A stretch of 64,000 nucleotides of DNA from a virus, in IMG/VR virus record IMGVR_UViG_3300008450_000005, positions 52,158 to 116,157 of that record; one strand, 5' to 3'. The translations under genes were made by a program, and so were the position numbers. Positions 33,126-50,733 of the stretch are shown here, in pieces. The notes under the pieces were generated by a model, which saw only the letters and a list, made by a program, of their open reading frames with translations, did no database searches and was not told where the DNA came from. Numbering within the stretch: the first letter of the stretch is position 1; each line of letters opens with the position of its first letter.

Positions 33126-33135
33126 AGTAAATTCT

Positions 33136-33143
33136 GATATATA
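33136..33143 (+). promoter_or_regulatory. GATATATA late-promoter-like motif before ferritin
   Basis: Lies between the dnaK terminator and the ferritin ATG. Confidence 0.6.
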
Positions 33144-33161
33144 GATAAAACAAGGAAATTC

Positions 33162-34506: not shown

Positions 34507-35922
34507 ATGTATCCAGATATGATAGTTGATATTGAAGCTAAGAAAGACCACCTGCACATTTCTACTTTTACCGAAGAGGGGGAACCAACATTCATCAACG
34601 TTCCAATCCCAGAAGAGGAAAGGTTCGTCTGGGAGAAGTGCCCGCATAATGACGCCAAGAAAGATCCTGTTTGGAGATCTTGGGACGGCGGCCATGTCAA
34701 AAAAGTAAAGTCTAACAAATTAGACAAATACCGCATTGCACAAATACTCGAGGAAGCTGATCGGGAATTAACTGCTCCACTATGGGCACACCAAAATCCT
34801 CGCAAATACTTTGTCGATATTGAGGTTGAGATTACTGAGGAGATGAAAGATGCATTGGACACAGAAAACGCCAAAAATCGAGTTCTCAGTATCGGTATAG
34901 CAACGGACAAGAACAAGATGATTGTCTTGGGTCTCGATGATCTATCAAGCGAGCAGATCGGATCGATTCATAAAAAGCTTAACACGCATTTTGAAAAGTT
35001 CGGAGAGGAATGGAGTTTCAAATACAGAAAGTTCGTTTCAGAATTCGACATGCTCTATACGTTCTTTAAAGATCTAGCTCCCAAAATGGCTTTGATTACT
35101 GGATGGAACTGGTTCGGATATGACTGGCCCTATTTGGTTAATAGAGCAAAAAGACTCAATATCGACCCTGCTATTATTTCAGCTTCCAGATATCTAATTG
35201 GAAAGAATCAATTACCCCAACACTTACTAATGGTCGATTATCTCGATATCTATAAAAAGTGGGACAGGGTGATCAAGATCAAAGAAAGCAATCGATTGGA
35301 CTACGTTGGAGAAAAAGCTATCGGTCTGAAGAAGATTGAATACAGCGGAAGTCTTAGAGATCTTTATCAATCGGACTTCGAAAAATTCATTTTCTATAAC
35401 GCGGTTGACTGTGTTCTTCTGCACTACATCGATCAGAAGCTGAAAACAATGCTGACGTATTTTAAGATTGCCGGAGTAACTGGAGTGGAGATATCCCGTG
35501 CACTTTCGCCAGTCTGGTCAACGGAGGTAATGATGCTGAGAAAATTTTTAGAGAGAAAACAGGTTTTGCTGAATATCCCTAAAGATGATAATCACGTCAA
35601 GTTCGCTGGTGGTTACGTAAAGGAACCAACTGTAGGATTACATGAATGGGTAGCTTGTTACGATTTTGCATCACTTTATCCTAACGCTATCGTGCAGTGG
35701 GGGATTTCGCCGGAAGCATATAAGGGAAAGAATGTAGCGGATCCAAAAGAAGAATGGGTAAGAACTGCTTCAGGAGCATATTTTGGAGGGGAGGAAGAAA
35801 AACCTATTCTCCGCACGATTGTAAAAGATCTATACTCAAAAAGAAGAAAAACCAAGGATCAAATGTTAGCACTTCAGTTAGAAATTGACAAATTACAAAA
35901 AGAATTGGAAAATTTCAAATAG
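34507..35922 (+). CDS. DNA polymerase family B, N-terminal subunit (exonuclease, palm motif A, first finger helix)
   Basis: ExoI DIEVE, ExoII GWNWFGYDWPY, ExoIII YNAVD, motif A YDFASLYPN; ends before motif B. Confidence 0.88.
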   Translation: MYPDMIVDIEAKKDHLHISTFTEEGEPTFINVPIPEEERFVWEKCPHNDAKKDPVWRSWDGGHVKKVKSNKLDKYRIAQILEEADRELTAPLWAHQNPRKYFVDIEVEITEEMKDALDTENAKNRVLSIGIATDKNKMIVLGLDDLSSEQIGSIHKKLNTHFEKFGEEWSFKYRKFVSEFDMLYTFFKDLAPKMALITGWNWFGYDWPYLVNRAKRLNIDPAIISASRYLIGKNQLPQHLLMVDYLDIYKKWDRVIKIKESNRLDYVGEKAIGLKKIEYSGSLRDLYQSDFEKFIFYNAVDCVLLHYIDQKLKTMLTYFKIAGVTGVEISRALSPVWSTEVMMLRKFLERKQVLLNIPKDDNHVKFAGGYVKEPTVGLHEWVACYDFASLYPNAIVQWGISPEAYKGKNVADPKEEWVRTASGAYFGGEEEKPILRTIVKDLYSKRRKTKDQMLALQLEIDKLQKELENFK

Positions 35923-36008
35923 GGGTGGGGACAAAAAAATGGGGTTGATATATAATCATCCCAAACGATTCTCACATCATTTTTAAAACAAAGAAAACGG
36001 AAAATAAG

Positions 36009-36494
36009 ATGGAACAAAATTTAACAAATTTTCAAGAGTGCTCTCATTTAGAGATCGAGGATCACTATTCAAACAGCACCGACACGCTGAACGAATTATT
36101 AACTATGCAAAAGAATATTCAGGAGGGTGTGTACGGTTACGACTTTGAAAAAATCAGAGAAACTTTGGGGTCATTGAAATCATTTTGTGATATGAATTAT
36201 CACGCAGATCAGGACGAGTGGAGAGAATTTTTCAACGCTCTAGGAGGTGTTCACTCACACGGTGCAGCAATTTGGAAACCCTGGAAGAGTAAACACAAAG
36301 AGGCACAAGAAAAAAAGTTTACAGACCTAACTCCTGAAGAATTAAAAGAATTGCAAATGGAAGTAGTCGACCGTTGGCATTTCTTATTTAACGTAACTCT
36401 TGCGGTCGGCTTAGACGCAAAAACTCTTTTCAATTATTATGTTGCTAAAAACAAGCACAACATAGAAAGACAGCAAAGACCAGGGGGTTACTAA
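36009..36494 (+). CDS. All-alpha (MazG-like) dCTP/dUTP pyrophosphatase, T4 gp56-like
   Basis: DEWRE, WKPWK, ELQMEVVDRWHF, YVAKNKHNIERQ..GY. Confidence 0.75.
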   Translation: MEQNLTNFQECSHLEIEDHYSNSTDTLNELLTMQKNIQEGVYGYDFEKIRETLGSLKSFCDMNYHADQDEWREFFNALGGVHSHGAAIWKPWKSKHKEAQEKKFTDLTPEELKELQMEVVDRWHFLFNVTLAVGLDAKTLFNYYVAKNKHNIERQQRPGGY

Positions 36495-36521
36495 TCCAAA
36501 AAAATTTAATATAAAAAAGAT

Positions 36522-37493
36522 ATGACGGAACAGAGTTATTCAGGGACCGAGCCCATTCTTGTCGAGAATCCGCACCGGTTTGTTATTTTCCCAATCCAAT
36601 ACGATGATATTTGGGAATTCTATAAACAGCACCAAGCTGCCTTTTGGACTGCGGAGGAGATTGACTTAACTAACGATTTGAAAGACTGGGATTCCCTTTC
36701 TGACAACGAAAGATTTTTCATCAAGAACGTTTTGAGTTTCTTTGCTGCTAGTGATGGAATTGTTAACGAGAATCTGGCTGAGAATTTTTATCGAGAGGTC
36801 CAATACCCAGAAGCTAAATTCTTCTACGGATTCCAGCTGGCGATGGAAAATATCCATTCGCTTATGTACAGTCTTTTGATTGACACATACATCTCTAACC
36901 ACAAAGAAAAATTGGAATGCTTCACAGCTATTGAGCATTTACCTGCGGTTCAAAAGAAAGCTAGTTGGGCTTTGAATTGGATTGAGAATGCATCCTTCCA
37001 AGAAAGATTAGTTGCATTTGCTGCAGTTGAAGGTATTTTCTTTTCAGGATCTTTTTGCTCCATCTTCTGGTTGAAAAATAGAGGTTTGATGCCCGGTCTT
37101 TGCAACGCAAACTCGCTGATTTTCAAAGACGAAAATTTGCATTGCGATTTTGCGATCCATCTTCTGAATAACCATTGTGTCACCAGGCCCAGCGAAAAAA
37201 GGATCAAAGAGATTCTACTTTCTGCTTTGGAGATTGAAAAAGAATTTATTACAGAGAGTTTGCCTGTGTCCCTAATAGGAATGAATTCCAATCTGATGAA
37301 ACAGTATTTGGAATTTGTCGTTGATGGATTGCTCGTAAAATTCAACTGTTCAAAAGAGTTTAAAGTGGAGAATCCTTTCAAATTCATGGAACAGATTGCT
37401 GTTGAAACTAAAGGAAATTTCTTTGAAGGTCGCACCGTTGAATATCAGAAGGTGAAACTGAACGAAGGATTTTCAATCGATGAGGATTTCTAA
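36522..37493 (+). CDS. nrdB: Ribonucleotide reductase class Ia beta subunit
   Basis: [41 protein letters not shown]. Confidence 0.95.
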
Positions 37494-37511
37494 AAAAAAT
37501 TATTAAGCACT

Positions 37512-39932
37512 ATGTTTTTGAAAATTATCAAAAGAAACGGAGAAGAGACATCATTCAACCCACAAAAAATTTATACTAGAATTAAGAGATCGTCGAAAGG
37601 ATTATCTGTTAACCCAGACGAGATTTTTATCGCCGTCATCACCTCGGTTCCGACAGAGGGTGAGATCACCACAAAGCAATTGGATAAATTGATTGCCGAC
37701 ATTTCAGCCTCGTACACTGGTACACACCATGACTATTCGAGATTAGCGGCACAAACATCGATTTCTTCATTCCACAAAGAAACACTTCCTAGTTTTTCTG
37801 AGACTATGAAAGTCCTCTTTGAAGAAGGTATCATTAATGCTACCTTCCACGAAAGAATTCAAAGCTATGGACCGGAAAAAATCGATGCTTTGGTAAACCA
37901 CGAGAACGATTTCAATTTTGATTACTTTGCATGGAGATCTCTGTACGAGATGTACCTGCTAAAGAAATCTAATGGGCAAGTTTTCGAAAGACCCCAGCAC
38001 ATGTATATGAGAGTTGCTCTTTGGGTTACAGATTCCTTTGAGAGCGCAGCGGATTATTACAATTCATTATCTAATCAGCTCATCTCACCTGCGACTCCTA
38101 TTATGATCAACTCAGGAACAAAGATTCCTCAGCTTTCATCTTGTGTTCTCCATTATAATGATGGCGATTCACGTGAAGGTTTGTTGAACACAATGAGAGA
38201 CATTTCAACCTATTCATCTGACGCAGCTGGAATTGGTCTTTGCATGTCGAACATTCGAAGCAAAGAAAGCAGAATCGCTGGTTCGGGAGGTTATGCAGGA
38301 GGTCTTTTGAAGTATCTAAAGATCGTCAACGAATCACTGAGATTCTTCAATCAGCAGGGTAGAAGACCTGGCTCGGCTGCGATTTACATCGAGCCTTGGC
38401 ACAAGGATATTTTCGACCTTCTTGAGATCAAGAAAAATACCGGTGCTGATGAATTGAGAGCACGTGATCTGTTCACCGCATTATGGATTCCTGATAACTT
38501 CATGGAAGCTGTTAAGGACGGTGGGGATTGGTACCTATTCTGTCCTAACGATATTCTAAAGGCTGGTATCAAGCCACTTCAGGAATGCTACGGTTCAGAA
38601 TACGAATCCAACTACAACAAGGCTGTTGAAATGGGATTGGGTAAAAAAGTGAAAGCTCAGGACGTTTGGTTCAAGATCATCGAATCTCAGGTAGAAACAG
38701 GAGTTCCTTACTTGGCATCAAAAGATAGTGCCAACAGGAAAACCAACCACCAAAACATCGGTGTTATCCGTCAATCCAATCTTTGCATCGAAATCTTCCA
38801 AGCAACTGATGAAAAAACCACAGCCATCTGCACACTTTCATCTTTAGTTCTGAAGAATTTTGTAGATAAAACCAGAGGGTCTTTCAACTTAACAAAATTG
38901 TTTGAAGAAACCAGAAAGATCGTCAGAGCTCTTAATATTGTAATCGATGTAAACTCCTATTCAACCAAGAAAGGTGAGAAAGGAGGATTTGAACAAAGAG
39001 CTATTGGAATTGGTACTCAAGGTCTAGCTGATGTATTCTTCCTCATGGATGTAATCTTTGATTCAGAAGAGGCAAAAAGTTTGAACAAGAATATCTTTGA
39101 AACGATCTATTATGCTGCTCTTTTCGAATCTAACGAATTGGTTAAGGGTGGCAAATACAAACCATATGATTACTTCAAAGGATCACCTGTTTCCGAAGGC
39201 GTATTCCAGTTCAACATGTGGGGATTGAGTAGTTCAGATCTTTGCGGCCTGTGGGATTGGGAAAGCTTGAAAAATGATATTGCAGAATACGGAATTTGTA
39301 ATAGCTTGGTAACTGCCCAGATGCCCGTCGCATCTTCTGCTAAGGTTACAGGATCTTTCGAAATGACTGAACCAGCACACTCAGCTCTTTTTAACCGAAG
39401 AGTGGTTGGCGGTGAAATCATGATAGTGAATAAATATCTGATTCAGGATTTTGAAAAGATCGGAATATGGTGCGAGGATCTGAAAAACGAGATTATCATG
39501 AATGATGGATCGGTCCAAAATATCAATTTCAACAATTACCTGGATTCGGAGGATAAGAACTACAACAAAAGAGTTCAAAGAATAGAATTCTTGATTCAGA
39601 AGTACAGAACCATTTGGGAAATACCTCAGAGATCTTTGATCGATATGGCAGCCGACCGTGCACCTTTCATAGACCAATCACAGTCGATGAACCTGTACAT
39701 GGCAAATCCAAGTGTTTCGAAGATATCTTCCGCTCACTTCTATTCATGGAGCAAGGGACTGAAAACTCTCTCCTATTACATCAGAACCAAAGCTATCTCA
39801 ACAGGAGCTAAGCATTTGGCGATGGATATCGAGAAGAAAGAAAAACCCAAAGCGATTGAGAGCAAGCCCGAAATAGTGCAAAACTCCAGACCGGAGAATA
39901 GCGATTTCGAATGCTTCGGTTGCTCTGCTTAA
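37512..39932 (+). CDS. nrdA: Ribonucleotide reductase class Ia alpha subunit (with ATP cone)
   Basis: IIKRNG cone, QLSSC, SNLCIE, C-terminal CFGCSA; no intein seen. Confidence 0.95.
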   Translation: MFLKIIKRNGEETSFNPQKIYTRIKRSSKGLSVNPDEIFIAVITSVPTEGEITTKQLDKLIADISASYTGTHHDYSRLAAQTSISSFHKETLPSFSETMKVLFEEGIINATFHERIQSYGPEKIDALVNHENDFNFDYFAWRSLYEMYLLKKSNGQVFERPQHMYMRVALWVTDSFESAADYYNSLSNQLISPATPIMINSGTKIPQLSSCVLHYNDGDSREGLLNTMRDISTYSSDAAGIGLCMSNIRSKESRIAGSGGYAGGLLKYLKIVNESLRFFNQQGRRPGSAAIYIEPWHKDIFDLLEIKKNTGADELRARDLFTALWIPDNFMEAVKDGGDWYLFCPNDILKAGIKPLQECYGSEYESNYNKAVEMGLGKKVKAQDVWFKIIESQVETGVPYLASKDSANRKTNHQNIGVIRQSNLCIEIFQATDEKTTAICTLSSLVLKNFVDKTRGSFNLTKLFEETRKIVRALNIVIDVNSYSTKKGEKGGFEQRAIGIGTQGLADVFFLMDVIFDSEEAKSLNKNIFETIYYAALFESNELVKGGKYKPYDYFKGSPVSEGVFQFNMWGLSSSDLCGLWDWESLKNDIAEYGICNSLVTAQMPVASSAKVTGSFEMTEPAHSALFNRRVVGGEIMIVNKYLIQDFEKIGIWCEDLKNEIIMNDGSVQNINFNNYLDSEDKNYNKRVQRIEFLIQKYRTIWEIPQRSLIDMAADRAPFIDQSQSMNLYMANPSVSKISSAHFYSWSKGLKTLSYYIRTKAISTGAKHLAMDIEKKEKPKAIESKPEIVQNSRPENSDFECFGCSA

Positions 39933-39939
39933 AATACAC

Positions 39940-39971
39940 AAATCCCCCTTCTTTTCAGGAGGGGGATTTTT
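39940..39971 (+). terminator. Rho-independent terminator after nrdA
   Basis: AAATCCCCCTTC...GGAGGGGGATTTTT. Confidence 0.8.
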
Positions 39972-39974
39972 GTG

Positions 39975-39982
39975 GATATATA
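39975..39982 (+). promoter_or_regulatory. GATATATA late-promoter-like motif before the NMP kinase
   Basis: Directly after the nrdA terminator, 8 nt before the ATG. Confidence 0.6.
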
Positions 39983-39990
39983 GATTGGAT

Positions 39991-40626
39991 ATGAAAAATA
40001 TATTGGACTTTTCATCATTTCTTTTTGAGAGAGAATTACCTGATTCACAGGGAAAAATTATAGTGATTTTAGGCCCTCCAGGATCTGGTAAAGGAACAGT
40101 CACAAAAATTCTGAAAAACGATTACGAATTTCAGGAGGTCAAAGTGAAAGAGCTGATGACCAGCGATCCTACGAAAGCTTCCAAAGACAACGTGGTAACA
40201 GAAAGAGGAATGATGGATCTTTTGAAAGAGAGAATCAAATCATTGGATCTTAGCAAAAATATAGTTTTTGACGGATTTCCTAGAACCAGAAAGCAATCGG
40301 TTATTCTGGATAAGGTTTTGGGGGAAATGGGGATAGGCTTAAATCATGCAGTTTTCCTTGATATAGAAAAAGACGTTGCTGTGAATCGTCTAAGAAAGAA
40401 AGCTGAGAAAGATGGAAAGAAATTTGATTCCGCAGCTGTAGAAGAAAAATTCCAAGATTACGAAGTTCGTACCCTTCCGGTAATAGACCAATATAAGAAG
40501 AGCAGGAAAATGATCGAGATTAAAGATCTCGGTGATGCTGAAAAGGTTTCCGAAAAGATTGTCAAAAGACTGAAGATCAAAAAGATCGCAAGCGAAAAAC
40601 CGGAAGCCGAAAACAAGAAGGCCTAA
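39991..40626 (+). CDS. adk: Adenylate kinase-family NMP kinase with capsid-targeting-like leader
   Basis: ILGPPGSGKGT, DGFPRT, TLPVIDQY; ATG at 39991 gives MKNILDFSSFLFE. Confidence 0.75.
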   Translation: MKNILDFSSFLFERELPDSQGKIIVILGPPGSGKGTVTKILKNDYEFQEVKVKELMTSDPTKASKDNVVTERGMMDLLKERIKSLDLSKNIVFDGFPRTRKQSVILDKVLGEMGIGLNHAVFLDIEKDVAVNRLRKKAEKDGKKFDSAAVEEKFQDYEVRTLPVIDQYKKSRKMIEIKDLGDAEKVSEKIVKRLKIKKIASEKPEAENKKA

Positions 40627-40644
40627 ACTTTTCTGAGTACACAC

Positions 40645-40673
40645 GAAAACATTTCTAATTTGTTCGGTATAAT
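40645..40673 (+). promoter_or_regulatory. Putative GAAAAY-N17-TATAAT promoter
   Basis: GAAAAC-17 nt-TATAAT; same arrangement at 48686 and 56966. Confidence 0.5.
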
Positions 40674-40694
40674 CTGTGTTTCAATACATTCTAT

Positions 40695-41921
40695 ATGTCT
40701 TTAGCACCCAACCAAACAGATTCAATCGTTATCACGGAACACGTCGTTCCGACAAACAGTTCAAAACAAGAAATCGAACTTTGCTTAGTGATGATAGTAA
40801 AGGACGAAGAAGACAGCATTGAAAAATGCTTGAAGTCAGTTGCTCCTTACATTTCATACTGGGTGATTGTTGATACAGGATCTTCCGATGATACGCTCAA
40901 CGTAATCAAGAAGGTAACTGAAGAATTGGGCATCCCTGGCGAATTGCACGAAAGACCATGGGTAAATTTCGAAGTAAATAGAACTGAATCGCTGGAACTT
41001 GCAAAAGGCAAGTGCGATTTCAGATGGATCATCGATGCGGATGATGAATTTATAGTGGAGGATGGCGTTAAAAATCCTTTTGCTGGATTAAGTGGAGAAG
41101 GTATTGACTGCTTCCAGTTGAAGTACAAATTGAGCGGACTCCAATATTACCGAGCACAGATCGTTGAATCCGGTCAGGAATGGTGCTACAAAGGTGTTTT
41201 ACATGAATATTTGCATTCCGACAAGGAACAGCAGAATCATGCTCAGGTCAAAGGATGCTACGTTAAGGCTGATATCTCCCCGCTCAAAAGAGCTTCTTCT
41301 GTCGAGGAAAAATATGCAAATGACGCAAAAATTCTCGAGAAAGCTTTAGATGCAGAGCCTGAAAATCACAGATACATGTTCTATCTTGCTCAAAGCTACC
41401 GCGATTCACAGCAAGACGATAAAGCTTACGCTGCTTACAAAAAAAGAGCAGAGGCTGGAGGATGGGAAGAGGAAGTTTATTATTCACTTTATATGATGGC
41501 CAAGATTAAAGAAAAATTGAAGGCATCATCTGATGATATTATTACGCATTATTCAAAAGCATGGGAATATAGACCGCAAAGATTAGAGGCTGCATTTCAT
41601 ACGATGCGAAAGCTGCGTGAGCAAAAAAGATTTGTCCTAGCATTTGCATACGGAAACGTTGCTACGAAGAGCCCAGGATGCTCCGATATCTTGTTCGTAG
41701 AGCCTGAAATGTGGCAATGGAGACTTCTTGATGAATATGCTCTAGCTGCATATTACACAGGAAATCCAGAGATTTCGATTGAGAAAACCACAGCTATAGT
41801 TGAGTCGGATTTTTTCAAAACTCTGAACCCTAAGGAGCAAGAAAGACTCACCAGAAATTTAGATCTTTATAAAAGAGGTTTTGATGCGAAAAAAAGTAAG
41901 GTAGGATCATTGAAAAGTTAA
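40695..41921 (+). CDS. Glycosyltransferase family 2 with C-terminal TPR repeats
   Basis: LCLVMIVKDEE, IVDTGSSD, IIDADD, GVLHE; TPR-like FYLAQSYRD, EEVYYS. Confidence 0.85.
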   Translation: MSLAPNQTDSIVITEHVVPTNSSKQEIELCLVMIVKDEEDSIEKCLKSVAPYISYWVIVDTGSSDDTLNVIKKVTEELGIPGELHERPWVNFEVNRTESLELAKGKCDFRWIIDADDEFIVEDGVKNPFAGLSGEGIDCFQLKYKLSGLQYYRAQIVESGQEWCYKGVLHEYLHSDKEQQNHAQVKGCYVKADISPLKRASSVEEKYANDAKILEKALDAEPENHRYMFYLAQSYRDSQQDDKAYAAYKKRAEAGGWEEEVYYSLYMMAKIKEKLKASSDDIITHYSKAWEYRPQRLEAAFHTMRKLREQKRFVLAFAYGNVATKSPGCSDILFVEPEMWQWRLLDEYALAAYYTGNPEISIEKTTAIVESDFFKTLNPKEQERLTRNLDLYKRGFDAKKSKVGSLKS

Positions 41922-42014
41922 ACATTTTTATTATATTTGCTTTTCTCTCGTTTAATTTTTAAACGAAGATATATAAAGATAGAAAAACCTAAGCTAATCT
42001 AAAATATAAAGAGA

Positions 42015-42539
42015 ATGAGACACTTAACCCTTTACGAAAATTTTTCTGTCAAAGAGGTATTCGAAGCCGCTATTCCAGTTTACAATGAATTGGAAGTGTC
42101 AGCATCGGGTGCTGCTGAGCCAGATTTCACCGCCAAGTATTCTGAACTGATCGACATCATCGAAGAATTCTTGGAAAGAAAGAAAGCCGGAGAGATCGAA
42201 GAGATCACCGTTGTTGCTGATGTCCCCACACAGGGAAAAGGTGCACCTGACTACGTTCAGGACATCATCAGAAAAGAAAGAGAAAGAATTGCTACACAAA
42301 TGCGTTCACAGGGCTACGATCCTGAAGAAGACGACATCGACATCGACCGTTTCGGCGATAAGAGAAATATCTTCTTCGATTCAGAATTCGTAGTTGATTC
42401 AGTTGAAAAAGATGCTGATGGAAAAGGTGGAAAAATTATTGCAATTCCATATTCTTTCTACAAAAAAGGTGACTACACCAAGAAAGCTCACATCGATCCA
42501 TTGAAAATAGACGAGGTATTCTACAAGCCAAAAGCTTAA
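42015..42539 (+). CDS. Hypothetical protein with capsid-targeting-like leader
   Basis: MRHLTLYENF...VFEA; GATATATA upstream; followed by its own terminator. Confidence 0.6.
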   Translation: MRHLTLYENFSVKEVFEAAIPVYNELEVSASGAAEPDFTAKYSELIDIIEEFLERKKAGEIEEITVVADVPTQGKGAPDYVQDIIRKERERIATQMRSQGYDPEEDDIDIDRFGDKRNIFFDSEFVVDSVEKDADGKGGKIIAIPYSFYKKGDYTKKAHIDPLKIDEVFYKPKA

Positions 42540-42562
42540 TACCTTATAACTTCATTATTTTT

Positions 42563-42585
42563 AAAAGGCCGGCAACGGCCTTTTT
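42563..42585 (+). terminator. Rho-independent terminator
   Basis: AAAAGGCCG-GCAA-CGGCCTTTTT. Confidence 0.8.
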
Positions 42586-42625
42586 CTTTGAAATAAAATC
42601 GTGATATCACAATAAAATATTTGGA

Positions 42626-44401
42626 ATGAAGAAAGCATCGAAAGAAATTAAAGTTTTATCAGATTTTGAACACATCGTTACCAGACCCACCTTATATGTT
42701 GGATCGGTGAAAATCAGCGAGGAAACTATTCCTATACTGAAAGGATCCCGGATACATCTTGAGGATAGAAAAGTCTCGGTTGGGATGTACAAATTATTCG
42801 ATGAGATTTTTTCGAACTGCGTGGATGAGGCCAAGAGAATGACTAAGCAGATGAAATCTATTGATGTGTCTGTGAATTCAGCAACTAACATGATTGAAAT
42901 CTGTGATTCTGGCGACGGCTTTCAGAATGGATCAGCGATTAATTCAAAGAGCGGGATGAGCAACGTTGCTACCGCTGTATCGATGTTGAGAGCAGGATCA
43001 AATTTTGATAATGACGGTATTGAAGAAACATTGATCGGTACAAATGGACTTGGTGTTTCGTTGGTGAATGCGTTGAGCGAGACATTCAAAATCTGCACTA
43101 GCAATTCATCCGAAACGTATGAGCAGGAATGGAAACGATTTGAATCCACCCAACCTAAGATTAAGAAGAGAAAAAATTCTTCCACCGGGACAGCAGTTTC
43201 GTTCGTTCCCAGATCGGATGTATTTGATAACTGCTCTTGGGAGAAGGAGATTATTTACACAACTCTCGTTCTGAAGAAAAGAGTTTTACAGAGTGATCCT
43301 AAGACTTCCAAGATCAAAATAAATTTCACATGGGATGGCGATCCAATTGAAATAGATACAAACCTTCCCGATTACATAGCTTATCCTCACGAGCTTGGCG
43401 AATTATTGCTAGCAAAGTCTTTCGAAGGTTCTGGCACAATCTCCTTCGTAAATTCGGCGATCTGTACCGGTGTCCATATTAAGATCGTGCAGGATCAAAT
43501 CAATAGAGTATTGGATGATTCTTTAGGACACCACTTTTATGATATGATTCTTATTCTTAACCTGCCACCGATTATGGTTAGATTTGGTGATCAGAATAAG
43601 ACAAAATTTGTCACTAAAAGGGAAGAGATTGAAACCACCATCTTGCACTCGCTCGGAAACAAGCTTTCCCAATTCTACAAGACCCCTCTGTTTAAAGAAA
43701 TAAAACAAGAGGTAGATCAGAGAAAAAAATCGGAGGAGATAAAGAAGATTAGGAAGGAAAGGAAGAATATCAATGTGAAATTTTCGCATAAGTATTTTCC
43801 TGCCTCGACAAAATCACCAGAAAATCTTTTTATCGTAGAAGGCCTTTCTGCCAGCGGATCAATCCTTCAGAAAAGGCAACCGCATAAAGACGCTGTCTAT
43901 GCACTAAAGGGTAAAATAAAGAATGCCAGATCTCTCGGCGATCTTTCAACGAACAAGGAAATTCTGGAACTGATGCAGATCTTAAATTTGGACCCGGAGA
44001 ACTCTAAATTGGAGTGTCCTTTCCAAAAGATTGTTATAGCTACAGATGCTGACTATGATGGTTACCACATCAGATCCTTGATCATTAATTTGTTTACTGC
44101 CTGGTTCCCCTGGATTGTGGAGCAGGGAAAAATCTATATTATGGAAACACCCATTATAACGATCGGGGATCGAACTAAAAAGTATTTCTATTCCGTAGAC
44201 GAATTTCTCAATTTCAAGGGTCAGAAATCATCGGTTAGATACTTAAAAGGACTGGGTTCTCTTTCTATCCAAGACTGGGATTACGTGATGGCTGATAAGC
44301 TACTCATCCAAATTAAGAAGGATGCTAAGGGAACGAAGAATCTGGATATGGCTTTTGGTAAGTTCTCTTCACTCAGAAAAGATTGGTTATCCTCGAAATA
44401 A
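42626..44401 (+). CDS. Type II topoisomerase ATPase/TOPRIM subunit (T4 gp39+60 / GyrB-like)
   Basis: RPTLYVGS, EIFSNCVDE, GTNGLG, VEGLSA, ATDADYDG, RYLKGLGS. Confidence 0.9.
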   Translation: MKKASKEIKVLSDFEHIVTRPTLYVGSVKISEETIPILKGSRIHLEDRKVSVGMYKLFDEIFSNCVDEAKRMTKQMKSIDVSVNSATNMIEICDSGDGFQNGSAINSKSGMSNVATAVSMLRAGSNFDNDGIEETLIGTNGLGVSLVNALSETFKICTSNSSETYEQEWKRFESTQPKIKKRKNSSTGTAVSFVPRSDVFDNCSWEKEIIYTTLVLKKRVLQSDPKTSKIKINFTWDGDPIEIDTNLPDYIAYPHELGELLLAKSFEGSGTISFVNSAICTGVHIKIVQDQINRVLDDSLGHHFYDMILILNLPPIMVRFGDQNKTKFVTKREEIETTILHSLGNKLSQFYKTPLFKEIKQEVDQRKKSEEIKKIRKERKNINVKFSHKYFPASTKSPENLFIVEGLSASGSILQKRQPHKDAVYALKGKIKNARSLGDLSTNKEILELMQILNLDPENSKLECPFQKIVIATDADYDGYHIRSLIINLFTAWFPWIVEQGKIYIMETPIITIGDRTKKYFYSVDEFLNFKGQKSSVRYLKGLGSLSIQDWDYVMADKLLIQIKKDAKGTKNLDMAFGKFSSLRKDWLSSK

Positions 44402-44436
44402 TTTTTCCTATCGCGATTTTTAATTATTTTTGACAT

Positions 44437-45360
44437 ATGAGATATGGGTACTGCTGCATCAATCTTTCCATTAACGAAGGGAAAAAAGATTCTGAAAGAA
44501 TTTACACCAACCGGTCGCTCACAAAAAAGACCTTTCTTGAAGGCGGATTGAAGAAAGCTTCTGAGCTTGCTTTAAAGAACGTTCAAGATCTGGAACATAT
44601 CATAGAGTGGAACAGGGACAATGGAATAATGATGTTCCGGATGAGCTCTGATCTATTCCCGTGGTGCTCGGAATATGAGCTTTCGGATCTTCCCGACTTC
44701 GAGGAGATCAAGAAAGCACTCATGTGGTGTGGGGCAAAATCTAAAATATACAAACAGAGATTAACATTCCACCCGTCTCACTTTTGTGTTATTTCTTCTC
44801 TACGGGAAGACGTTGTAAAAAACTCAATTAAAGAATTGAGACAACATGCTGAGATTATGGATCTGATGGGACTTGAACAGAATTTCAACTATCCGATTAA
44901 TATCCATATAAATACCACCAAGCCTGATAAGGAATCTGCAGCAGCTAGATTCTGTGAAGCCTATTCACAGCTTCCAGAGAATGTTAGAAAAAGATTGGTT
45001 CTGGAAAACGACGATAAGCCTAGCGAATTTAACCCTTTCGATCTGTATGAATTGGTTCACCAGAAAGTAGGGATACCATTGACGTTTGATTATCTGCACT
45101 ACTTCTGTAACCCTCGAGATGGACATTCCGAAAAAGAAGCATTGCAGGTTTCAATATCTACATGGCCGGAGGGGATTACACCAATCACTCATTATTCAGA
45201 ATCCCGTAAATTGAACGAGGACGAAAGCAGCAAATTGCTTGCACACACCGATTGGATTTGGAGCCGAAATATCGAAACTTATGGGTTTGAAATAGATATA
45301 GAATTCGAGGTCAAAATGAAAGATCTCGCATTATTAAAATATCTTAAAAACCAAGCATGA
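44437..45360 (+). CDS. uvsE: UV-damage endonuclease (UvsE/UVDE)
   Basis: RYGYCCIN, FRMSSDLFP, HPSHF, LENDD, FDYLH, HYSES, EVKMKD. Confidence 0.9.
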   Translation: MRYGYCCINLSINEGKKDSERIYTNRSLTKKTFLEGGLKKASELALKNVQDLEHIIEWNRDNGIMMFRMSSDLFPWCSEYELSDLPDFEEIKKALMWCGAKSKIYKQRLTFHPSHFCVISSLREDVVKNSIKELRQHAEIMDLMGLEQNFNYPINIHINTTKPDKESAAARFCEAYSQLPENVRKRLVLENDDKPSEFNPFDLYELVHQKVGIPLTFDYLHYFCNPRDGHSEKEALQVSISTWPEGITPITHYSESRKLNEDESSKLLAHTDWIWSRNIETYGFEIDIEFEVKMKDLALLKYLKNQA

Positions 45361-45602
45361 GCGACGAAAAAATCCAAGAAGCATATCAGAGATTTGACGA
45401 TTTCGAAAAACAACTCCTAGGTGTTAAAGAGGTAACTTGGACACCCGACGAGGAGATCACTTCAAAAATCCATTACGATATCTTATCAGAGAATTTTGGG
45501 GAGGAAGAGGTGCAGAAAACTTTAGAAACCAACGGCATAGAAATCAAATACCTCTCAAACCACGATACATTTCTGAAAATTTTTGAAATGTTGAAGCAAT
45601 GA
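45357..45602 (+). CDS. Hypothetical protein
   Basis: Coupled 81-aa ORF. Confidence 0.55.
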   Translation: MSDEKIQEAYQRFDDFEKQLLGVKEVTWTPDEEITSKIHYDILSENFGEEEVQKTLETNGIEIKYLSNHDTFLKIFEMLKQ

Positions 45603-45940
45603 GTTTGCCGTTTCTCAATAGTCCATTCTCGAGGTTCCCATCGGACCATCCACAAATTGAGCTGATCAAATCTCATCTTGTGCGTGCGATGCAGGACCTA
45701 TTTCTGATCAGCATTAGAAATCTAGACGATGAATTCATGCTGATATTCGACTCAGAGGAAGAGATCGACGAATTCTGTGACGGAATAATCAAGTACAGAG
45801 AAAGTATAGAAGAGTATGAGGTATGTAACGAGATCCTGGATACCAAGCCACAGCTTCTTGAAAAATGGAAGAAATTCAATTCTAAACCACTCAAAAAAGG
45901 TTTTGACGACATCAAAGCCTGGTTAAAATCAACTATCTAA
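45599..45940 (+). CDS. Small protein with UVR-like EEYExC motif
   Basis: YRESIEEYEVCNEI. Confidence 0.55.
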   Translation: MSLPFLNSPFSRFPSDHPQIELIKSHLVRAMQDLFLISIRNLDDEFMLIFDSEEEIDEFCDGIIKYRESIEEYEVCNEILDTKPQLLEKWKKFNSKPLKKGFDDIKAWLKSTI

Positions 45941-45942
45941 TA

Positions 45943-46962
45943 ATGAAGGACTATTACGCAACATTAGGGGTAGATCGGAACGCAACTCCGGAGCAGATCA
46001 AAAAGGCATACCGTAAGCTAGCCATCCAATACCACCCGGATAAAACTGGTGGAGACCCTGAGTTAAATCAAAAATTTACTGACCTGACAGAGGCTTACGA
46101 TACTCTTTCGGATCCAGCTAAAAAACAAAAATACGATAATCCCGTTAGTGGATGGGGTCCATTCCAAGGGATGGAAGACATCTTCAATTTCAATATGGGA
46201 GATATTTTCAGTGGTGGAAATCGAAGATCTAAATCTGTTAAAGGTCCTAACCTGATGATCATGGTTAATCTGACTTTGGAAGAAATGGCCACCGGTTCAA
46301 AAAAGGAAATCGAACTCCGAAAAAGAACGATGTGCGTTCCGTGCAGCGGAACGGGAGCTGATAATGGACAAGCTCAAACTTGTAACCAGTGTATGGGATT
46401 AGGATTCAGAAGGAAGTCTATTAATTCGGGTTTTGGTCAGATCACTATGGACGAGGCATGCCCACATTGCGCAGGTGAAGGAAAAATAGTTACCAACGCT
46501 TGTATCTCTTGCTTTGGAAACGGATTCGTGCACGCCAATGAAAGAATAGAGGTTAAAATACCAGCTGGATTTGTCCCAGGTATGAACTTCATCTTGACTG
46601 GCAAGGGAGAATGGGTTAGAGGTTGCACAATTCCAGGCGACGTAACTGTCAAAATAGAAGAATATGCTCACCCAACTTTCGAGAGATCAAATTTAGATTT
46701 GATCTGCAATAAGAAAGTATCATTTACTAAAGCTTGCCTTGGCGGGGATCTGGAAATACCAAATCTTCTTGGCGGGTCTTTTAAATTCAACATCCCTGAA
46801 TTAACTGCACCAGGAAGAATTTTTAGACTGCAAGGCAAGGGATTGCCAAATCACTCCAATGGAGTTAAAGGCGATATAATTGTTAAGATAGTTCTTGAAA
46901 TGCCAAAGGAACTTAACGAAGAAAAAATCTCAAAATTGAGAGAACTAGAAGAAATTTTATGA
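45943..46962 (+). CDS. dnaJ: Chaperone DnaJ (class A)
   Basis: J domain with HPD, G/F region, four CxxCxGxG repeats. Confidence 0.93.
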   Translation: MKDYYATLGVDRNATPEQIKKAYRKLAIQYHPDKTGGDPELNQKFTDLTEAYDTLSDPAKKQKYDNPVSGWGPFQGMEDIFNFNMGDIFSGGNRRSKSVKGPNLMIMVNLTLEEMATGSKKEIELRKRTMCVPCSGTGADNGQAQTCNQCMGLGFRRKSINSGFGQITMDEACPHCAGEGKIVTNACISCFGNGFVHANERIEVKIPAGFVPGMNFILTGKGEWVRGCTIPGDVTVKIEEYAHPTFERSNLDLICNKKVSFTKACLGGDLEIPNLLGGSFKFNIPELTAPGRIFRLQGKGLPNHSNGVKGDIIVKIVLEMPKELNEEKISKLRELEEIL

Positions 46963-47270
46963 TTTTACTAATACTATTATTTAACGCCTGGTCGATCGCT
47001 AATATCATTGTGCATGGCTCGATTTTTTCAGGGGCGAGAAAATTCTTGCTTTTGAATTCACCATTTTGGGGAAGCATGGTAACCTGTATGATGTGCGCTT
47101 CAGTTTATGTAGGACTGGCCCAGGCATTAATACTCAACTTTTCCGATGTCCTAATTATTTTTCCAGATAGTCCATGGTTGGATATTTTCATCCTTACATT
47201 CTGCAGCAGCGGATTTTCGTACATCGCAGACATGATCATTTGGAAATTTTTCATAAGTGATAAAATATAA
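46959..47270 (+). CDS. Membrane protein (DUF1360-like)
   Basis: IF..AR...CMMCASVY.G; several hydrophobic segments. Confidence 0.5.
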   Translation: MILLILLFNAWSIANIIVHGSIFSGARKFLLLNSPFWGSMVTCMMCASVYVGLAQALILNFSDVLIIFPDSPWLDIFILTFCSSGFSYIADMIIWKFFISDKI

Positions 47271-47290
47271 ACCATCATAATTGCAAATAG

Positions 47291-48697
47291 GTGGAAAAAT
47301 ATATTACTATCACAGATCAGATCAACAGTCAGTATAGAAGCTATGCTCTGTATGTTCTACAATCAAGAGGAATTCCTAATTTTTACGACGGTCTAACCCC
47401 GGTTCAGAGACTGATCGTTCAGCACGCTCCCAAAACATTTAACAAAACGCTAGGACTAGTAGGTGAGGTAATCAGAACTGGATTATACCACCACTCAGAT
47501 TCATCGTTAGCAGGTGCAGTATCCAAGCTTGCAAGGCCATTCGGATGCTCTCACCAAATTCTGGAAGGAGATGGATTTTTCGGATCCCCAGTGAACCCGA
47601 ACCCTTCTGCTCCAAGATACACATCGGTTAGGGTTAACCCCAGATCTTCGGAAATTCTTTTCAGACATCTGGATCTTAACGAAAAAAACAAAGAGGGAGG
47701 ATACGATTGGCTTCATACTGAACTTCCCATCGGTCTAGTTACACATGTTGTTGGAATCGCTGTCGGATACAGATCAAATATACTTCCCAGAAAATTAGAG
47801 GATGTGGTGGAATACATTCAAGGGCAGAATAAGCTGCTCAAGCCACACTTTAAAGATTTTAGCGGAAAGATTACTAAACTGCAGGGATCTGAGAAATGCT
47901 GGCTATTGGAGGGGAATTTTAAGGAAGATAAATCCAGGAAGGCAGTAGAGATTCAGGATTTACCTCCGCTCATGAGATATGATAACTTTATCATTAAGCT
48001 CACAACGAAGCTGGAAATGATGGGATATGAGTACACTATCCGCAACAAATCCCAATCGACCGTTAACATTGAAATCCTTTTCAAGAAGATAACTCCAAAG
48101 GAATTTGATTACGTTTCTGCCCAAATCAAAAAATTGACTCAGATCGTAGTCAATGAAAATATAGTGCTGATCAAAGATGGAGGTGTCAAAGAGTATGATT
48201 CAATCAAGGAATATCTCGACGAGTTCAAGGAGCACTACAATCGTGTTCTATTGAAAAGAATTCTGAAGGATCTCGATGATGCCACTAACGAAATCTCTTA
48301 CCTCAAAGCCAAACTTGAATTTCTAGTATTCATGTCTGGTCCAAAAAGAACATCGAAAGAAATTACAGACTTTATTTCTAAATATCCTGATTGGATTGCT
48401 AGAAGACTTTCTAAAATTGAATTGGTTAGACTCTCCAATGACACCATCAACGAGGTTAAAAAACAGATACAGGAGCTTGAAGGCCAGAAGAAGAAATTAA
48501 CCAAAGAAGCAAAAGATCAGGAAAAAATTTGGAAGTCATTCACGGTAAAACCCACTGTTGCACTTAAAAAGGCCATGGCTTTATTTGGAGAGGAAGATTA
48601 CACAGAGAAAACAGTAACAGATGACGGAATCGAGATTTACCAGCCTGAGGTAGAAGCAGAGGAAGAATCTTTCCCTGAAGAAGATGAAAATATTTAA
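47291..48697 (+). CDS. Type II topoisomerase cleavage subunit (T4 gp52 / GyrA-like)
   Basis: RGIPNFYDGLTPVQR, YHHSD, GFFGS, SAPRY (catalytic Tyr), GIAVG. Confidence 0.9.
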   Translation: MEKYITITDQINSQYRSYALYVLQSRGIPNFYDGLTPVQRLIVQHAPKTFNKTLGLVGEVIRTGLYHHSDSSLAGAVSKLARPFGCSHQILEGDGFFGSPVNPNPSAPRYTSVRVNPRSSEILFRHLDLNEKNKEGGYDWLHTELPIGLVTHVVGIAVGYRSNILPRKLEDVVEYIQGQNKLLKPHFKDFSGKITKLQGSEKCWLLEGNFKEDKSRKAVEIQDLPPLMRYDNFIIKLTTKLEMMGYEYTIRNKSQSTVNIEILFKKITPKEFDYVSAQIKKLTQIVVNENIVLIKDGGVKEYDSIKEYLDEFKEHYNRVLLKRILKDLDDATNEISYLKAKLEFLVFMSGPKRTSKEITDFISKYPDWIARRLSKIELVRLSNDTINEVKKQIQELEGQKKKLTKEAKDQEKIWKSFTVKPTVALKKAMALFGEEDYTEKTVTDDGIEIYQPEVEAEEESFPEEDENI

Positions 48698-48714
48698 AAC
48701 CTTATAGCTATAAT
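48686..48714 (+). promoter_or_regulatory. Putative GAAAAY-N17-TATAAT promoter
   Basis: GAAAAT-17 nt-TATAAT upstream of the clamp gene. Confidence 0.5.
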
Positions 48715-48722
48715 TAAAAAAT

Positions 48723-49478
48723 ATGAATTTACGCATCACTAGCATTCCGAATCTTATCGAGTTTTTAAGAAAACTTAAAGCAGTTGATAAGAGTGTATTA
48801 TTGGAGATGAACACCCAAGATCTTTTCTCCAAGATTCACACACCAGATAAATCAGTCATGAAGTCTGTTAAAACCCCAATATCACAGGTTTTTGACGGAG
48901 TTATTGATACGGGCAATTACGATCGTATTAAGATCGGTATGGTTGACGTTTCAAGATTCATTGATTGCTTCAAAAATTTCAAGCCAACAGACATCGTTCA
49001 TCTGGAGATTGTAACTTCCGAAGCCGATGGAGAATTCGTGGCCACTTCATTGAAGGTGTATACCGACATGATGAAGATCAATTTCGTTTGCGCTGATTTA
49101 GCTCTCATGTCTTACGTTGAAGATGCTATCGTAGCAATGGTTCACGGAACTGAAGAATCGCTCGGTAATTTCCGACTTTACAGATCAGATTTTGAAACGC
49201 TTGGTTCTCTATGCGGATTAGAAAATAATTCGGAAGAACTCTTGGAATTCACAATCAATTCAGAAAGCGTAACTACATCCGGTCAGTCATTCGAATATAA
49301 ACTAAACATCGGAACATCGGACATATCAGCTGAAGAAGATATGGTTGTCTATATTTACAAGAAGCAGCTTGGCTATGTAGACTTAGAGCAATCGGTTATC
49401 TACATCCACGAAAACAGAATGATCTTTAAATCTGAAGAAAAATCAAACACCATTGCTATTGGGTTAATCCAGAAGTAA
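48723..49478 (+). CDS. DNA sliding clamp (gp45/PCNA-like)
   Basis: About 250 aa, acidic, repeated alpha/beta pattern, adjacent to the polymerase subunit. Confidence 0.55.
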   Translation: MNLRITSIPNLIEFLRKLKAVDKSVLLEMNTQDLFSKIHTPDKSVMKSVKTPISQVFDGVIDTGNYDRIKIGMVDVSRFIDCFKNFKPTDIVHLEIVTSEADGEFVATSLKVYTDMMKINFVCADLALMSYVEDAIVAMVHGTEESLGNFRLYRSDFETLGSLCGLENNSEELLEFTINSESVTTSGQSFEYKLNIGTSDISAEEDMVVYIYKKQLGYVDLEQSVIYIHENRMIFKSEEKSNTIAIGLIQK

Positions 49479-49500
49479 TTTGTATGATATCATAGATGGG

Positions 49501-49527
49501 AAAGCCTCTTATAGAGGCTTTTCTTTT
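49501..49527 (+). terminator. Rho-independent terminator
   Basis: AAAGCCTCT-TAT-AGAGGCTTTTCTTTT. Confidence 0.75.
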
Positions 49528-49575
49528 GAAAAATGATCAAGTGGAGGAACATAAAAAGTAATTGGTATAAAATAC

Positions 49576-50733
49576 ATGATGGAGATGGAAACAAAAACAA
49601 AGGATGATCTCAGAAAAGAAATAGAACGTCTAACCAATCTTAAGAATGAACTGAAGAACGAAGAGCAGGCGGTTAAGCTAACGATGAATTCGATTTATGG
49701 AGCTGTAGGAAACTCGTTTTTCGTTTGTCAGAATCCCGATGTGGCGGAAGCTGTAACATTGCAGGGACAAGACTTGATTAAGTTTGCGGAGAAGATTATC
49801 AATAGGTATTTCAATGAACATTGGCATATAGACAAGGAGTTACACGAGAAGATTGGTCTGACAGAGGTTCGAAGAATTGCTAGACCTCTAGTAATATACA
49901 TTGACACTGATTCGAACTATGTTTCTTTTGAGGAGGTTGTCAAATCGTGTGATTGGAATGGAACTCCAATGGATTTGATCTTAAAAATAAACGAGTACCG
50001 TATAAACGATTATCTCAAGAATTGCTTGAATATCTACGCTAAAAAATGGGGCACAGAAAACTGCCAGGATTTTGAGCTTGAGACATTATCACACAATGCT
50101 ATCTTCTTAGGAAAAAAGAAATACGTTGTCAACCTCGCTTATGACTCTGGGATAACTATCCAGAGTTTGAAAGAATTGAAATTCACTGGTGTTGAGATGG
50201 TAAAGGGCGGTACGCCTCCTTTTGTTCGGGAGAAGCTGATTTACTTAACCAAATACATCTTTACTCATGGTTCAAAATTTGAGTTAAAGAATTTCGTTAA
50301 AGAGATCAAAGATATCAAGAAGGAATTCAAGATTCAAGAACCCGATAGAATTTCTGCAGGTATCACATCTAATAACTACGAGAAGTTTATACTCAACGAT
50401 TCGACCTCTCTCGAGGTAGCAGGCAGCTGTCCTATCCACGTAAGAGCTTCGGGATTCCACAATTTCCTTCTGAATAATTCTAAATACAAAAGTAAATACC
50501 CGCTAATACAGAGTGGAGAAAAGGTCAGATGGTATTTCGTTAAAACCAAAAAAGTCACAGACTGCAATGTTTTTGCTTATTCACAAGGAACATACCCATA
50601 CGAATTTGCACCGGCGATTGACTATGATATGCAATTCACCAAAACGATTCTAGATCCGATAAATAGATTCATTGAAGCAATGGGTCATAATCCTATCAGT
50701 CCTAATTTATTTACCATAACAGCCTTATTCTAA
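49576..50733 (+). CDS. DNA polymerase family B, C-terminal subunit (second finger helix, motifs B and C, thumb)
   Basis: KLTMNSIYG (B), YIDTDS (C), KKKY, TGVE; hydrophobic tail TITALF. Confidence 0.88.
   Translation: MMEMETKTKDDLRKEIERLTNLKNELKNEEQAVKLTMNSIYGAVGNSFFVCQNPDVAEAVTLQGQDLIKFAEKIINRYFNEHWHIDKELHEKIGLTEVRRIARPLVIYIDTDSNYVSFEEVVKSCDWNGTPMDLILKINEYRINDYLKNCLNIYAKKWGTENCQDFELETLSHNAIFLGKKKYVVNLAYDSGITIQSLKELKFTGVEMVKGGTPPFVREKLIYLTKYIFTHGSKFELKNFVKEIKDIKKEFKIQEPDRISAGITSNNYEKFILNDSTSLEVAGSCPIHVRASGFHNFLLNNSKYKSKYPLIQSGEKVRWYFVKTKKVTDCNVFAYSQGTYPYEFAPAIDYDMQFTKTILDPINRFIEAMGHNPISPNLFTITALF

Follow-up and report, generated by a model that had tools for sequence, protein, structure and literature searches.

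Do two genes that each encode only one part of a family-B DNA polymerase (PolB), and that lie far from each other, together make one enzyme? This question is raised by a 64,000-nucleotide stretch of viral DNA (IMG/VR record IMGVR_UViG_3300008450_000005, positions 52,158 to 116,157; hereafter the window), in which an N half and a C half of PolB are encoded by separate open reading frames (ORFs). It is very probable that the two ORFs encode two subunits of one replicative PolB of the T4 gp43/RB69 type, whose gene is broken at the fingertip loop, in a jumbo phage of ~290 kb.

The N half (471 aa; 34507..35922, + strand) runs from the N-terminal domain through the 3'-5' exonuclease and the beginning of the palm to the first finger helix. 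The C half (385 aa; 49576..50733, + strand) starts with the second finger helix, which leads into motif B, and contains the remaining palm with motif C, and the thumb. The coordinates and termini of both ORFs match those in the preliminary description of this DNA. Its assignment of Exo I-III and motif A to the first ORF, and of motifs B and C and the thumb to the second, was confirmed by Pfam, PHROGs and the alignments. The N half matches PF03104 and positions 16-142 of PF00136, and the C half matches positions 133-452 of PF00136. The halves tile the full-length PHROGs profile phrog_262 end to end (112-496 for the N half and 494-840 for the C half). Exo I (D104/E106), Exo II (N201/D206) and Exo III (Y297/D301) of the N half are at least 90% conserved among 80 sequences (alignment A1), in which motif A of the DxxSLYPS type (D386...S389, Y391, P392) is invariant. 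Motif B of the KxxxNSxYG type (K34...N38 S39 Y41 G42) and motif C, DTDS (D110 T111 D112 S113), are likewise invariant in the C half, and its KKxY motif (K181) is invariant or nearly so (alignment A2). In T4 and RB69, the C-terminus of gp43 binds the clamp, gp45. The C half ends in a hydrophobic C-terminal tail (50701..50730, + strand) that is conserved clade-wide in the consensus of alignment A2, and by analogy this tail may be a clamp-binding peptide.

Predicted structures locate the break. The AF2 model of the N half has a pLDDT of 92.9, and its residues 1-471 were placed by VIA-align on about residues 1-507 of RB69 gp43 (Z 29.4); the fit covers 437 residues, against RB69 5-507, at an rmsd of 4.3 A. 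The model of the C half has a pLDDT of 83.3 and, when modelled alone, a pTM of 0.49; its residues 1-375 were placed on RB69 527-893 with a Z of ~18 and an rmsd of ~14 A, the latter reflecting the lack of a fixed domain arrangement in the lone model. Thus, only the fingertip loop, corresponding to RB69 508-526, is missing between the halves. DSSP on the models assigns the first finger helix to residues 434-470 of the N half (35806..35916, + strand), including the invariant R446 and K450, and the second to residues 9-45 of the C half (49600..49710, + strand), continuing into motif B (K34-G42). The terminal helix is therefore 37 residues long on either side of the break. R446 is invariant in the 80 sequences of alignment A1, and the N-half ORF stops 25 residues past it. 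The conserved finger lysines are separated by 54 residues here and by 73 in RB69. When aligned on T4 and intact relatives, the break coincides with those of the Acj133 and 44RR polymerases, which are known to be active in split form. A split between the two finger helices, as had been proposed, is borne out by the missing RB69 segment and by this shared position.

In the preliminary description, both ends were regarded as heptad-like extensions that join the halves by an antiparallel coiled coil. They are not additions. The finger helices of the intact P0007 and T4 enzymes are found at the same place with similar length and align with both ends, which rules out an added coiled-coil zipper. What remains of the proposal is that these native helices are antiparallel; they are unlikely to be the sole joint, however, because the palm is also divided. 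With motif A on one protein and motif C on the other, each chain contributes part of the palm, and the interface should be much larger than the finger helices.

The same break is found in many relatives. At least 21 independent assemblies from different samples keep the split with the same strand and gene order at 53-82% identity, the halves being 12.8-21.5 kb apart, so the split position and gene distance, which the preliminary description suggested checking in relatives, both recur. Among the 150 nearest protein clusters at 50% identity, 116 are N-half-only with the same tail; stand-alone C halves make up 1,424 clusters; and megaphages have 100-280 kb between the two halves. Far from being a peculiarity of this genome, the arrangement is common and well conserved.

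If the halves were decaying remnants, a separate intact polymerase would have to replicate the genome. Only these two PolB matches are present on the window's own contig, but that contig is only ~42% complete and the rest of the genome is unseen, which leaves room for such an enzyme. However, the catalytic motifs are all intact and invariant, and in more than 20 lineages, at 53-82% identity, both halves are conserved and free of stop codons. Moreover, the CheckV-complete 290-kb relative G026 (72-74% identical) has no PolB match other than the same two. Decayed pseudogenes were therefore rejected, and we consider a hidden intact polymerase highly improbable. As the sequence is a metagenomic contig, the separation might instead be an assembly artefact or a chimera, and the sister assemblies G019 and G031 do continue differently past the GT2-TPR gene. 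Against this, order and orientation are repeated in the at least 21 assemblies mentioned above, the interval is collinear gene by gene, and the N half has a clean stop at the same residue across the clade, with a tail of 25 residues after R446 in 17 of the 18 paired relatives. An artefact was rejected because so many independent assemblies keep the split and the gene order, and its probability is negligible.

Two halves of this kind could also be joined covalently after expression, by a split intein, a trans-splicing RNA or ribosomal bypass. Members of this PolB family do carry split inteins, at motif C in LR756500, G012 and Lak-A2, and a 'fractured gene' type with split inteins was reportedly described by Dassa et al. 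in 2009. In LR756500 and G012, the Pfam search recovers PF14890 at motif C, spread over two ORFs; therefore intein detection works, and these relatives serve as a positive control. In the window halves, however, no match of Pfam to PF14890 or another intein was obtained at E 0.01 or better, and no intein block was found. Rfam gave no match in the whole window, so neither an intron nor a ribozyme was detected there. Both ORFs have their own start and stop, with no intein or intron at the break. The N tail and the C head are plain amphipathic helices that align with the finger helices of intact enzymes, and the known fingertip splits function without a covalent join (PMC2988022). A split intein at the fingertip was rejected since no N- or C-intein blocks flank the break, in agreement with the initial observation that intein termini are absent, and we regard covalent joining by any of the three routes as very unlikely.

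The halves are 13.6 kb apart, and the genes between them, from an NTP pyrophosphatase through a clamp-like ORF, are ordinary genes on the + strand by Pfam and PHROGs, as the preliminary description had stated. The N half is immediately followed by a gene for an all-alpha NTP pyrophosphatase, dUTPase/dCTPase-like (36009..36494, + strand; phrog_173, E 2e-18). Its product is 36% identical (E 5e-35) to PAU gp106, annotated 'dUTPase', which has the same position in PAU. The gene had been called a dCTPase; its membership in the all-alpha NTP pyrophosphatases stands, and the specificity for dCTP is putative. The intervening module that follows (36522..48697, + strand) contains nrdB, nrdA, a kinase gene, GT2-TPR, orf174, the topo II large subunit gene, UvdE, two small ORFs, DnaJ, orf103 and the topo II A-type subunit gene, and it is collinear in G026, G007, G016 and G005.

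The ORF directly upstream of the C half (48723..49478, + strand) probably encodes a gp45/PCNA-type sliding clamp, because a profile of its homologues (A3) matches only PCNA clamps in PDB (5 of 5 matches, E 0.002). Its position points in the same direction, and Atlas gave a lead to PF09116. Pfam, PHROGs and single-sequence PDB searches yielded nothing useful for this ORF, so that only the homologue profile worked, and pairwise BLASTP of the ORF with PAU gp109 and with the MA9V-1 neighbour was not significant. The clamp position is likewise filled in PAU (by gp109, named a clamp in PMC4889955), in the clade relatives and in LR756500. The proposed location of the C half beside a clamp gene is thus probably correct.

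Three stable terminator-like hairpins with a U-run are present on the + strand between the halves: after nrdA (39937..39972; -20.7 kcal/mol, z -4.7), after orf174 (42563..42590; -14.1 kcal/mol, z -3.75) and in the gap between the clamp gene and the C half (49498..49530; -16.2 kcal/mol, z -4.15). They are consistent with the suggestion that the halves may belong to different transcription units. These are individual intergenic hairpins verified by folding; the terminator total in the scan was at chance (13 vs 12.3). The third hairpin is probably not conserved, since relatives have at most 40 nt between the clamp gene and the C half. The region just downstream of the N half folds no better than shuffles (z -0.7), and a sigma-70 promoter scan gave 37 sites, fewer than in shuffled sequence (49 +/- 7).

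The hairpins may also suggest that the halves have partly independent roles besides the polymerase, for example with the N half serving by itself as a proofreading exonuclease, or that their stoichiometry is set by separate expression. This idea would fit the megaphage halves at unrelated loci and on opposite strands, the AF2 result that the N half folds confidently alone and the C half does not, and the finding that the N fragment of Pfu polymerase is soluble by itself (PMC3061061). However, nothing points to a separate activity, the C half, which lacks motif A, cannot be catalytic by itself, and exactly one copy of each half is found in every record having both. Such independent roles are unlikely in our judgement.

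We prefer a two-subunit polymerase, which would operate as follows. Each half would be translated separately. The N half would contribute its N-terminal domain and proofreading exonuclease, the palm portion that carries motif A, and the first of the two finger helices. From the C half would come the other finger helix, together with motif B, the palm portion that carries motif C, the thumb and the tail that binds the clamp. We infer that the halves assemble into an active enzyme without a covalent join. The native finger helices would pair as the usual antiparallel hairpin minus its connecting loop, and the palm portions would complete each other, so that both chains supply catalytic aspartates, D386 from the N half and D110/D112 from the C half. 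Within the clade the split is old and stable, with the halves bracketing a conserved replication and nucleotide-metabolism module, and in more distant megaphages the halves have drifted to any distance and orientation.

A FastTree tree of 149 N regions, built from metagenome cluster representatives and carrying no support values, with eight fragments of <430 aa left out and seven ambiguous rows unscored, places T4, Acj133 and 44RR in a separate clade and implies that the split or intact state changed ~19 times. A wider reading, which we consider less likely than not, is that the two-chain fingertip-split enzyme is the ancestral and prevailing form in a very large PolB clade that spans jumbo phages and megaphages and takes in this freshwater-type clade and the LR7565xx megaphages as well as Lak phages, PAU and MA9V. 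The halves would be independent genes drifting from 2 kb to >250 kb apart and onto opposite strands, and the ~19 changes would represent repeated re-fusion into intact genes or repeated breakage. If this were true, covalent continuity of the fingers would be dispensable over long evolutionary time, and an open fingertip or separate expression would possibly be selected, for instance for regulated assembly or in connection with modified dNTPs.

The cut is real and many relatives share it, but splits of this kind are already known; therefore the main new point is the distance between the two genes, and no new mechanism is revealed. An essential replicative polymerase can remain split at the fingertip over long evolutionary periods, and its two genes may bracket a whole module or be dispersed in the genome of a megaphage. 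Annotation pipelines and polB phylogenies of jumbo phages must seek two genes, because a 'DNA polymerase' of ~470 aa that stands alone is no fragment.

Fingertip-split, bicistronic gp43 is known in Aeromonas phages 25, 31, 44RR and 65 and in Acinetobacter phage 133 (Petrov & Karam 2004; Petrov et al. 2006, as cited in PMC2988022 and PMC3061061), and gp43A and gp43B of phage 25 co-purify and are active (PMC2988022). This precedent, T4-like polymerases split in the fingers as nearby cistrons, was correctly given in the preliminary description. The enzyme family, the break between the finger helices, the lack of an intein and the two independently translated chains are the same as here, and the N halves of Acj133 and 44RR stop 26-30 residues past the conserved finger Arg, compared with 25 here. 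However, the Aeromonas and Acinetobacter halves are 2 bp to ~3 kb apart, with an untranslated spacer or a homing endonuclease gene between them, whereas at least 13 conserved housekeeping genes separate the halves in the window. The fingertip kept before motif B in the C half is also shorter, 28-35 residues here versus 46 in the Aeromonas/Acinetobacter type, and the lineage may differ from that of T4, Acj133 and 44RR.

Closer in arrangement are Sphingomonas phage PAU (gp105/gp110) and Chryseobacterium phages MA9V-1 and MA9V-2, whose GenBank annotations reveal the same split with ordinary genes in between; our literature search found no paper on the split in these three phages. The frame in PAU is like that in the window, with the N half followed by the homologous 'dUTPase' and the cryptic clamp gp109 preceding the C half. 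In PAU and MA9V, however, the halves are just 2.2-3.6 kb and 2-4 genes apart, and their identity to the window proteins is ~28-30%.

PhiKZ gp82 and gp50, the N and C parts of the chimallivirus DNAP, form a stable 1:1 PolB resembling RB69 (PMC13648687). As in the window, a jumbo-phage PolB is made from two distant genes, with motif A and motif C in separate chains. The PhiKZ enzyme is broken inside a large palm insertion, so that the fingers are wholly in the C subunit, and it incorporates a clamp-derived subunit and belongs to a different, very divergent PolB clade (PMC13648687). A split of the PhiKZ type was ruled out here, as the N half includes the first finger helix. Among archaea, the Methanothermobacter PolB is split in the palm with its genes 85 kb apart, and the Nanoarchaeum equitans PolB is split with a split intein, its halves being re-ligated by protein trans-splicing (both as cited in PMC3061061 and PMC2677866). 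According to these citations, both are family-B enzymes encoded at two distant loci as here, but they are archaeal and are broken at other sites.

An engineered Pfu polymerase split at the fingertip is fully active and behaves like the wild type when reconstituted (PMC3061061). It shares the fingertip cut with the enzyme described here and differs in being artificial, bicistronic and archaeal, with a short fingertip. The present family provides many natural sequence pairs for studying how the finger helices and the shared palm hold a split polymerase together, which is relevant to engineered split polymerases such as Pfu. The C fragment of Pfu folds only with the N fragment (PMC3061061), in line with the low confidence of our model for the C half alone.

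A family-B DNA polymerase is encoded in the window by two plus-strand ORFs, the N half (34507-35922, 471 aa) and the C half (49576-50733, 385 aa), both of which are present with exactly the termini that the preliminary description quoted. In Pfam, the N-half ORF matches an exonuclease domain and positions 16-142 of the PolB model, and the C-half ORF matches positions 133-452. One full-length polymerase profile of 856 in PHROGs is covered consecutively (N half, 112-496; C half, 494-840). Individual halves also have families of their own, phrog_2062 and phrog_1918, indicating that split forms are already numerous in phage databases. No catalytic motif is damaged: the N half carries Exo I-III together with motif A (D386), and motifs B (K34...YG42), C (D110-S113) and KKxY lie in the C half. 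Across alignments of 80 and 32 sequences, all of them are invariant or nearly so.

The break lies in the fingertip. AlphaFold2 models of both halves are confident (pLDDT 92.9 for the N half and 83.3 for the C half); a 37-residue helix (434-470) closes the N half and another (9-45) opens the C half. RB69 and T4 gp43 are the top structural matches for both. Since N-half residues 1-471 superimpose on RB69 1-507 (Z 29.4, VIA-align) and C-half residues 1-375 on RB69 527-893 (Z about 18), the missing segment is the fingertip loop only, about 508-526 in RB69. From the conserved finger lysine K450 to the motif B lysine K34 there are 54 residues, versus 73 in RB69. Alignment of the halves with T4 and a further 15 intact relatives put the break at the position seen in Acinetobacter phage 133 and in Aeromonas phage 44RR. 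The ends had been described as heptad-like extensions; they are, however, native finger helices and not additions, because P0007, an intact protein of 877 aa that is the closest such relative (42% identity), shows both helices as well, connected by a tip of about 30 residues.

The split is neither an assembly artefact nor a decayed copy. N halves at 53-82% identity were found at 70 IMG/VR loci. Comparison of split position and gene distance, which had been proposed as a check, gave the same N-half stop position in all 30 long IMG/VR records, with the C half downstream on the same strand at 12.8-21.5 kb in 21 of them. Among these 21, G026 is rated complete by CheckV (289,651 bp), and its whole genome has no PF00136 match beyond the two halves. 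The parent of the window, a 116-kb IMG/VR contig about 42% complete, likewise has only the two PolB pieces, so the intact polB elsewhere that would have made these decayed copies was not found in either. Of 18 paired relatives, 17 have an N tail of 25 residues past an invariant Arg, and the C head places 28-35 residues ahead of motif B.

Similar splits are widespread. The nearest deposited genomes by tblastn are megaphages LR756500-504 and LR745206 (33-38% identity), together with Lak phages, Chryseobacterium phages MA9V-1 and MA9V-2, Sphingomonas phage PAU and Flavobacterium phage MaF61, the last with an intact gene (994 aa). Two genes separate the halves in MA9V-1, and four in PAU (gp105 and gp110). 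Megaphage halves are far apart, often on opposite strands: about 10 kb in LR756500, 100 kb in LR745206, 132 kb in LR756502 and 280 kb in LR756504, and about 221 kb in Lak-A2. When 1.84 billion cluster representatives were searched exhaustively with HMMER, 116 of the best 150 matches were N-half-only proteins (430-560 aa) with the same tail architecture and 15 were of intact size. Stand-alone C halves of about 380 aa accounted for 1,424 clusters at an E-value of 1e-10 or lower. Both window halves share 47% identity with one intact form, P0002. Because intact forms are scattered among split ones on an N-region FastTree tree, with about 19 state changes by parsimony, the fingertip is a place where breakage, re-joining or both have recurred.

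The interval between the halves is collinear gene by gene throughout the clade: PolB-N, NTP pyrophosphatase, nrdB, nrdA, kinase, GT2-TPR, orf174, topoisomerase II large subunit, UvdE, small ORFs, DnaJ, orf103, topoisomerase II A-type subunit, clamp and PolB-C. Insertions and deletions account for the variation in distance; nrdAB and UvdE are missing from G007, and G005 carries additional inserts. The T4-style two-gene type II topoisomerase consists of a GyrB-like large subunit (42626-44401, phrog_543) and a GyrA-like subunit (47291-48697, PF00521, phrog_551), 2.9 kb apart with UvdE, small ORFs and DnaJ between them. The nrdA gene (37512-39932) is only 39-43% identical in relatives whose nrdB (36522-37493) is 65-67% identical, and is 80% identical in the closest relative, L003; judging from these identities, nrdA looks to have been swapped for a different allele or lineage within the conserved module. 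Two IMG/VR relatives with N halves 71-72% identical, G019 (L054, L148) and G031 (L062), are syntenic from PolB-N to GT2-TPR, past which the 27-55 kb left in the records contain no topoisomerase II, UvdE, DnaJ, clamp or PolB-C. This continuation is common to two assemblies from sister samples, which suggests a real rearrangement placing the C half much further off in an otherwise syntenic clade, a chimera formed repeatedly being a possible alternative. In G023 (L119, L121, L122; IMG/VR 3300012983_000031; 35% identity) the two halves share a strand but stand in reverse order: the C half comes first, about 18 kb upstream of the N half, and its 603-aa frame contains insertions.

The statement that the halves lack intein termini holds: no intein domain was found in either, and no Rfam family anywhere in the window. 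Detection had a positive control within the family. The C half of LR756500, G012 and Lak-A2 has a further break, at motif C (DTD|S). Pfam finds its intein splicing profile there in two parts, about 7-87 on the first piece and 119-155 on the second, and the pieces flank a free-standing ORF, nuclease-like in LR756500 (575 aa, DUF7487 and REase-like domain). These C halves are at L141 (LR756500.1 246500-265500) 2287-5699 on the minus strand, L120/L118 (G012) and L140 (Lak-A2). This is the 'fractured gene' type of Dassa et al. 2009 (PMC2677866). With a fingertip break plus a split intein at motif C, these polymerases are in three pieces, with what would be a non-covalent fingertip joint and a trans-splicing motif C joint. 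In some other C halves, P0156 among them, the intein is contiguous. At motif C the window's C half is unbroken, and no intein arrangement of the motif C type was found at the fingertip break.

The two chains would assemble without a covalent join, the amphipathic finger helices pairing in the normal antiparallel manner. Because motif A and motif C are on different proteins, the palm would be rebuilt from both chains. Such assembly is consistent with the AlphaFold2 model of the lone C half, whose domain arrangement is not fixed (pTM 0.49), with fingertip-split Pfu, which is fully active and whose C fragment needs the N fragment present to fold (PMC3061061), and with phage 25 gp43A and gp43B, which co-purify and are active (PMC2988022).

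The gene adjoining the N half downstream, homologous to the PAU 'dUTPase' in the same position, is by sequence an all-alpha NTP pyrophosphatase. The gene preceding the C half is probably a sliding clamp, since the only PDB matches of its profile (21 homologues) are PCNA clamps (5/5, E 0.002), ESM Atlas gave a lead to gp45-slide_C, and its position matches that of PAU gp109, a cryptic clamp according to Kazlauskas et al. (PMC4889955). Clamp/PolB-C adjacency is kept from the window's clade to LR756500 and PAU, which fits a putative clamp-binding tail at the C-terminus of the C half. Intergenic gaps between the halves include three stable hairpins, each with a U-run after it (-20.7, -14.1 and -16.2 kcal/mol; z from -3.75 to -4.7), so it is plausible that the halves belong to separate transcription units. 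In relatives the gap immediately ahead of the C half is 40 nt or less, so the hairpin in that gap is probably not a conserved feature. Promoter scans were uninformative. The motif GATATATA occurs at about 33135-33150, 35945-35960 and 41985-42000, in the gaps upstream of 33162, 36009 and 42015, and was not seen directly upstream of either half. Also encoded near the polymerase genes (31173-33071, 45943-46962, 33162-33725 and 33786-34199) are a full-length DnaK/Hsp70, a three-domain DnaJ, a ferritin/Dps-like protein and a small HhH-GPD glycosylase.

Our literature search found no paper on a long-distance fingertip split or its prevalence; in huge gut phages, according to a recent paper, endonucleases often split the polymerase genes (PMC12880540). 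For PAU and MA9V, deposited sequences already show the polymerase as two genes with ordinary genes in between. Family-B polymerases from distant genes are also known in PhiKZ and Methanothermobacter, but their break sites differ from the window's; in PhiKZ, where the break is in the palm, gp82 and gp50 form a stable 1:1 RB69-like enzyme (PMC13648687). The window's polymerase is the known fingertip split of T4-like Aeromonas and Acinetobacter phages, occurring in another, much larger lineage, where a conserved module of 13-21 kb separates the halves in the window's clade, whereas they are 3 kb or less apart in those T4-like phages.
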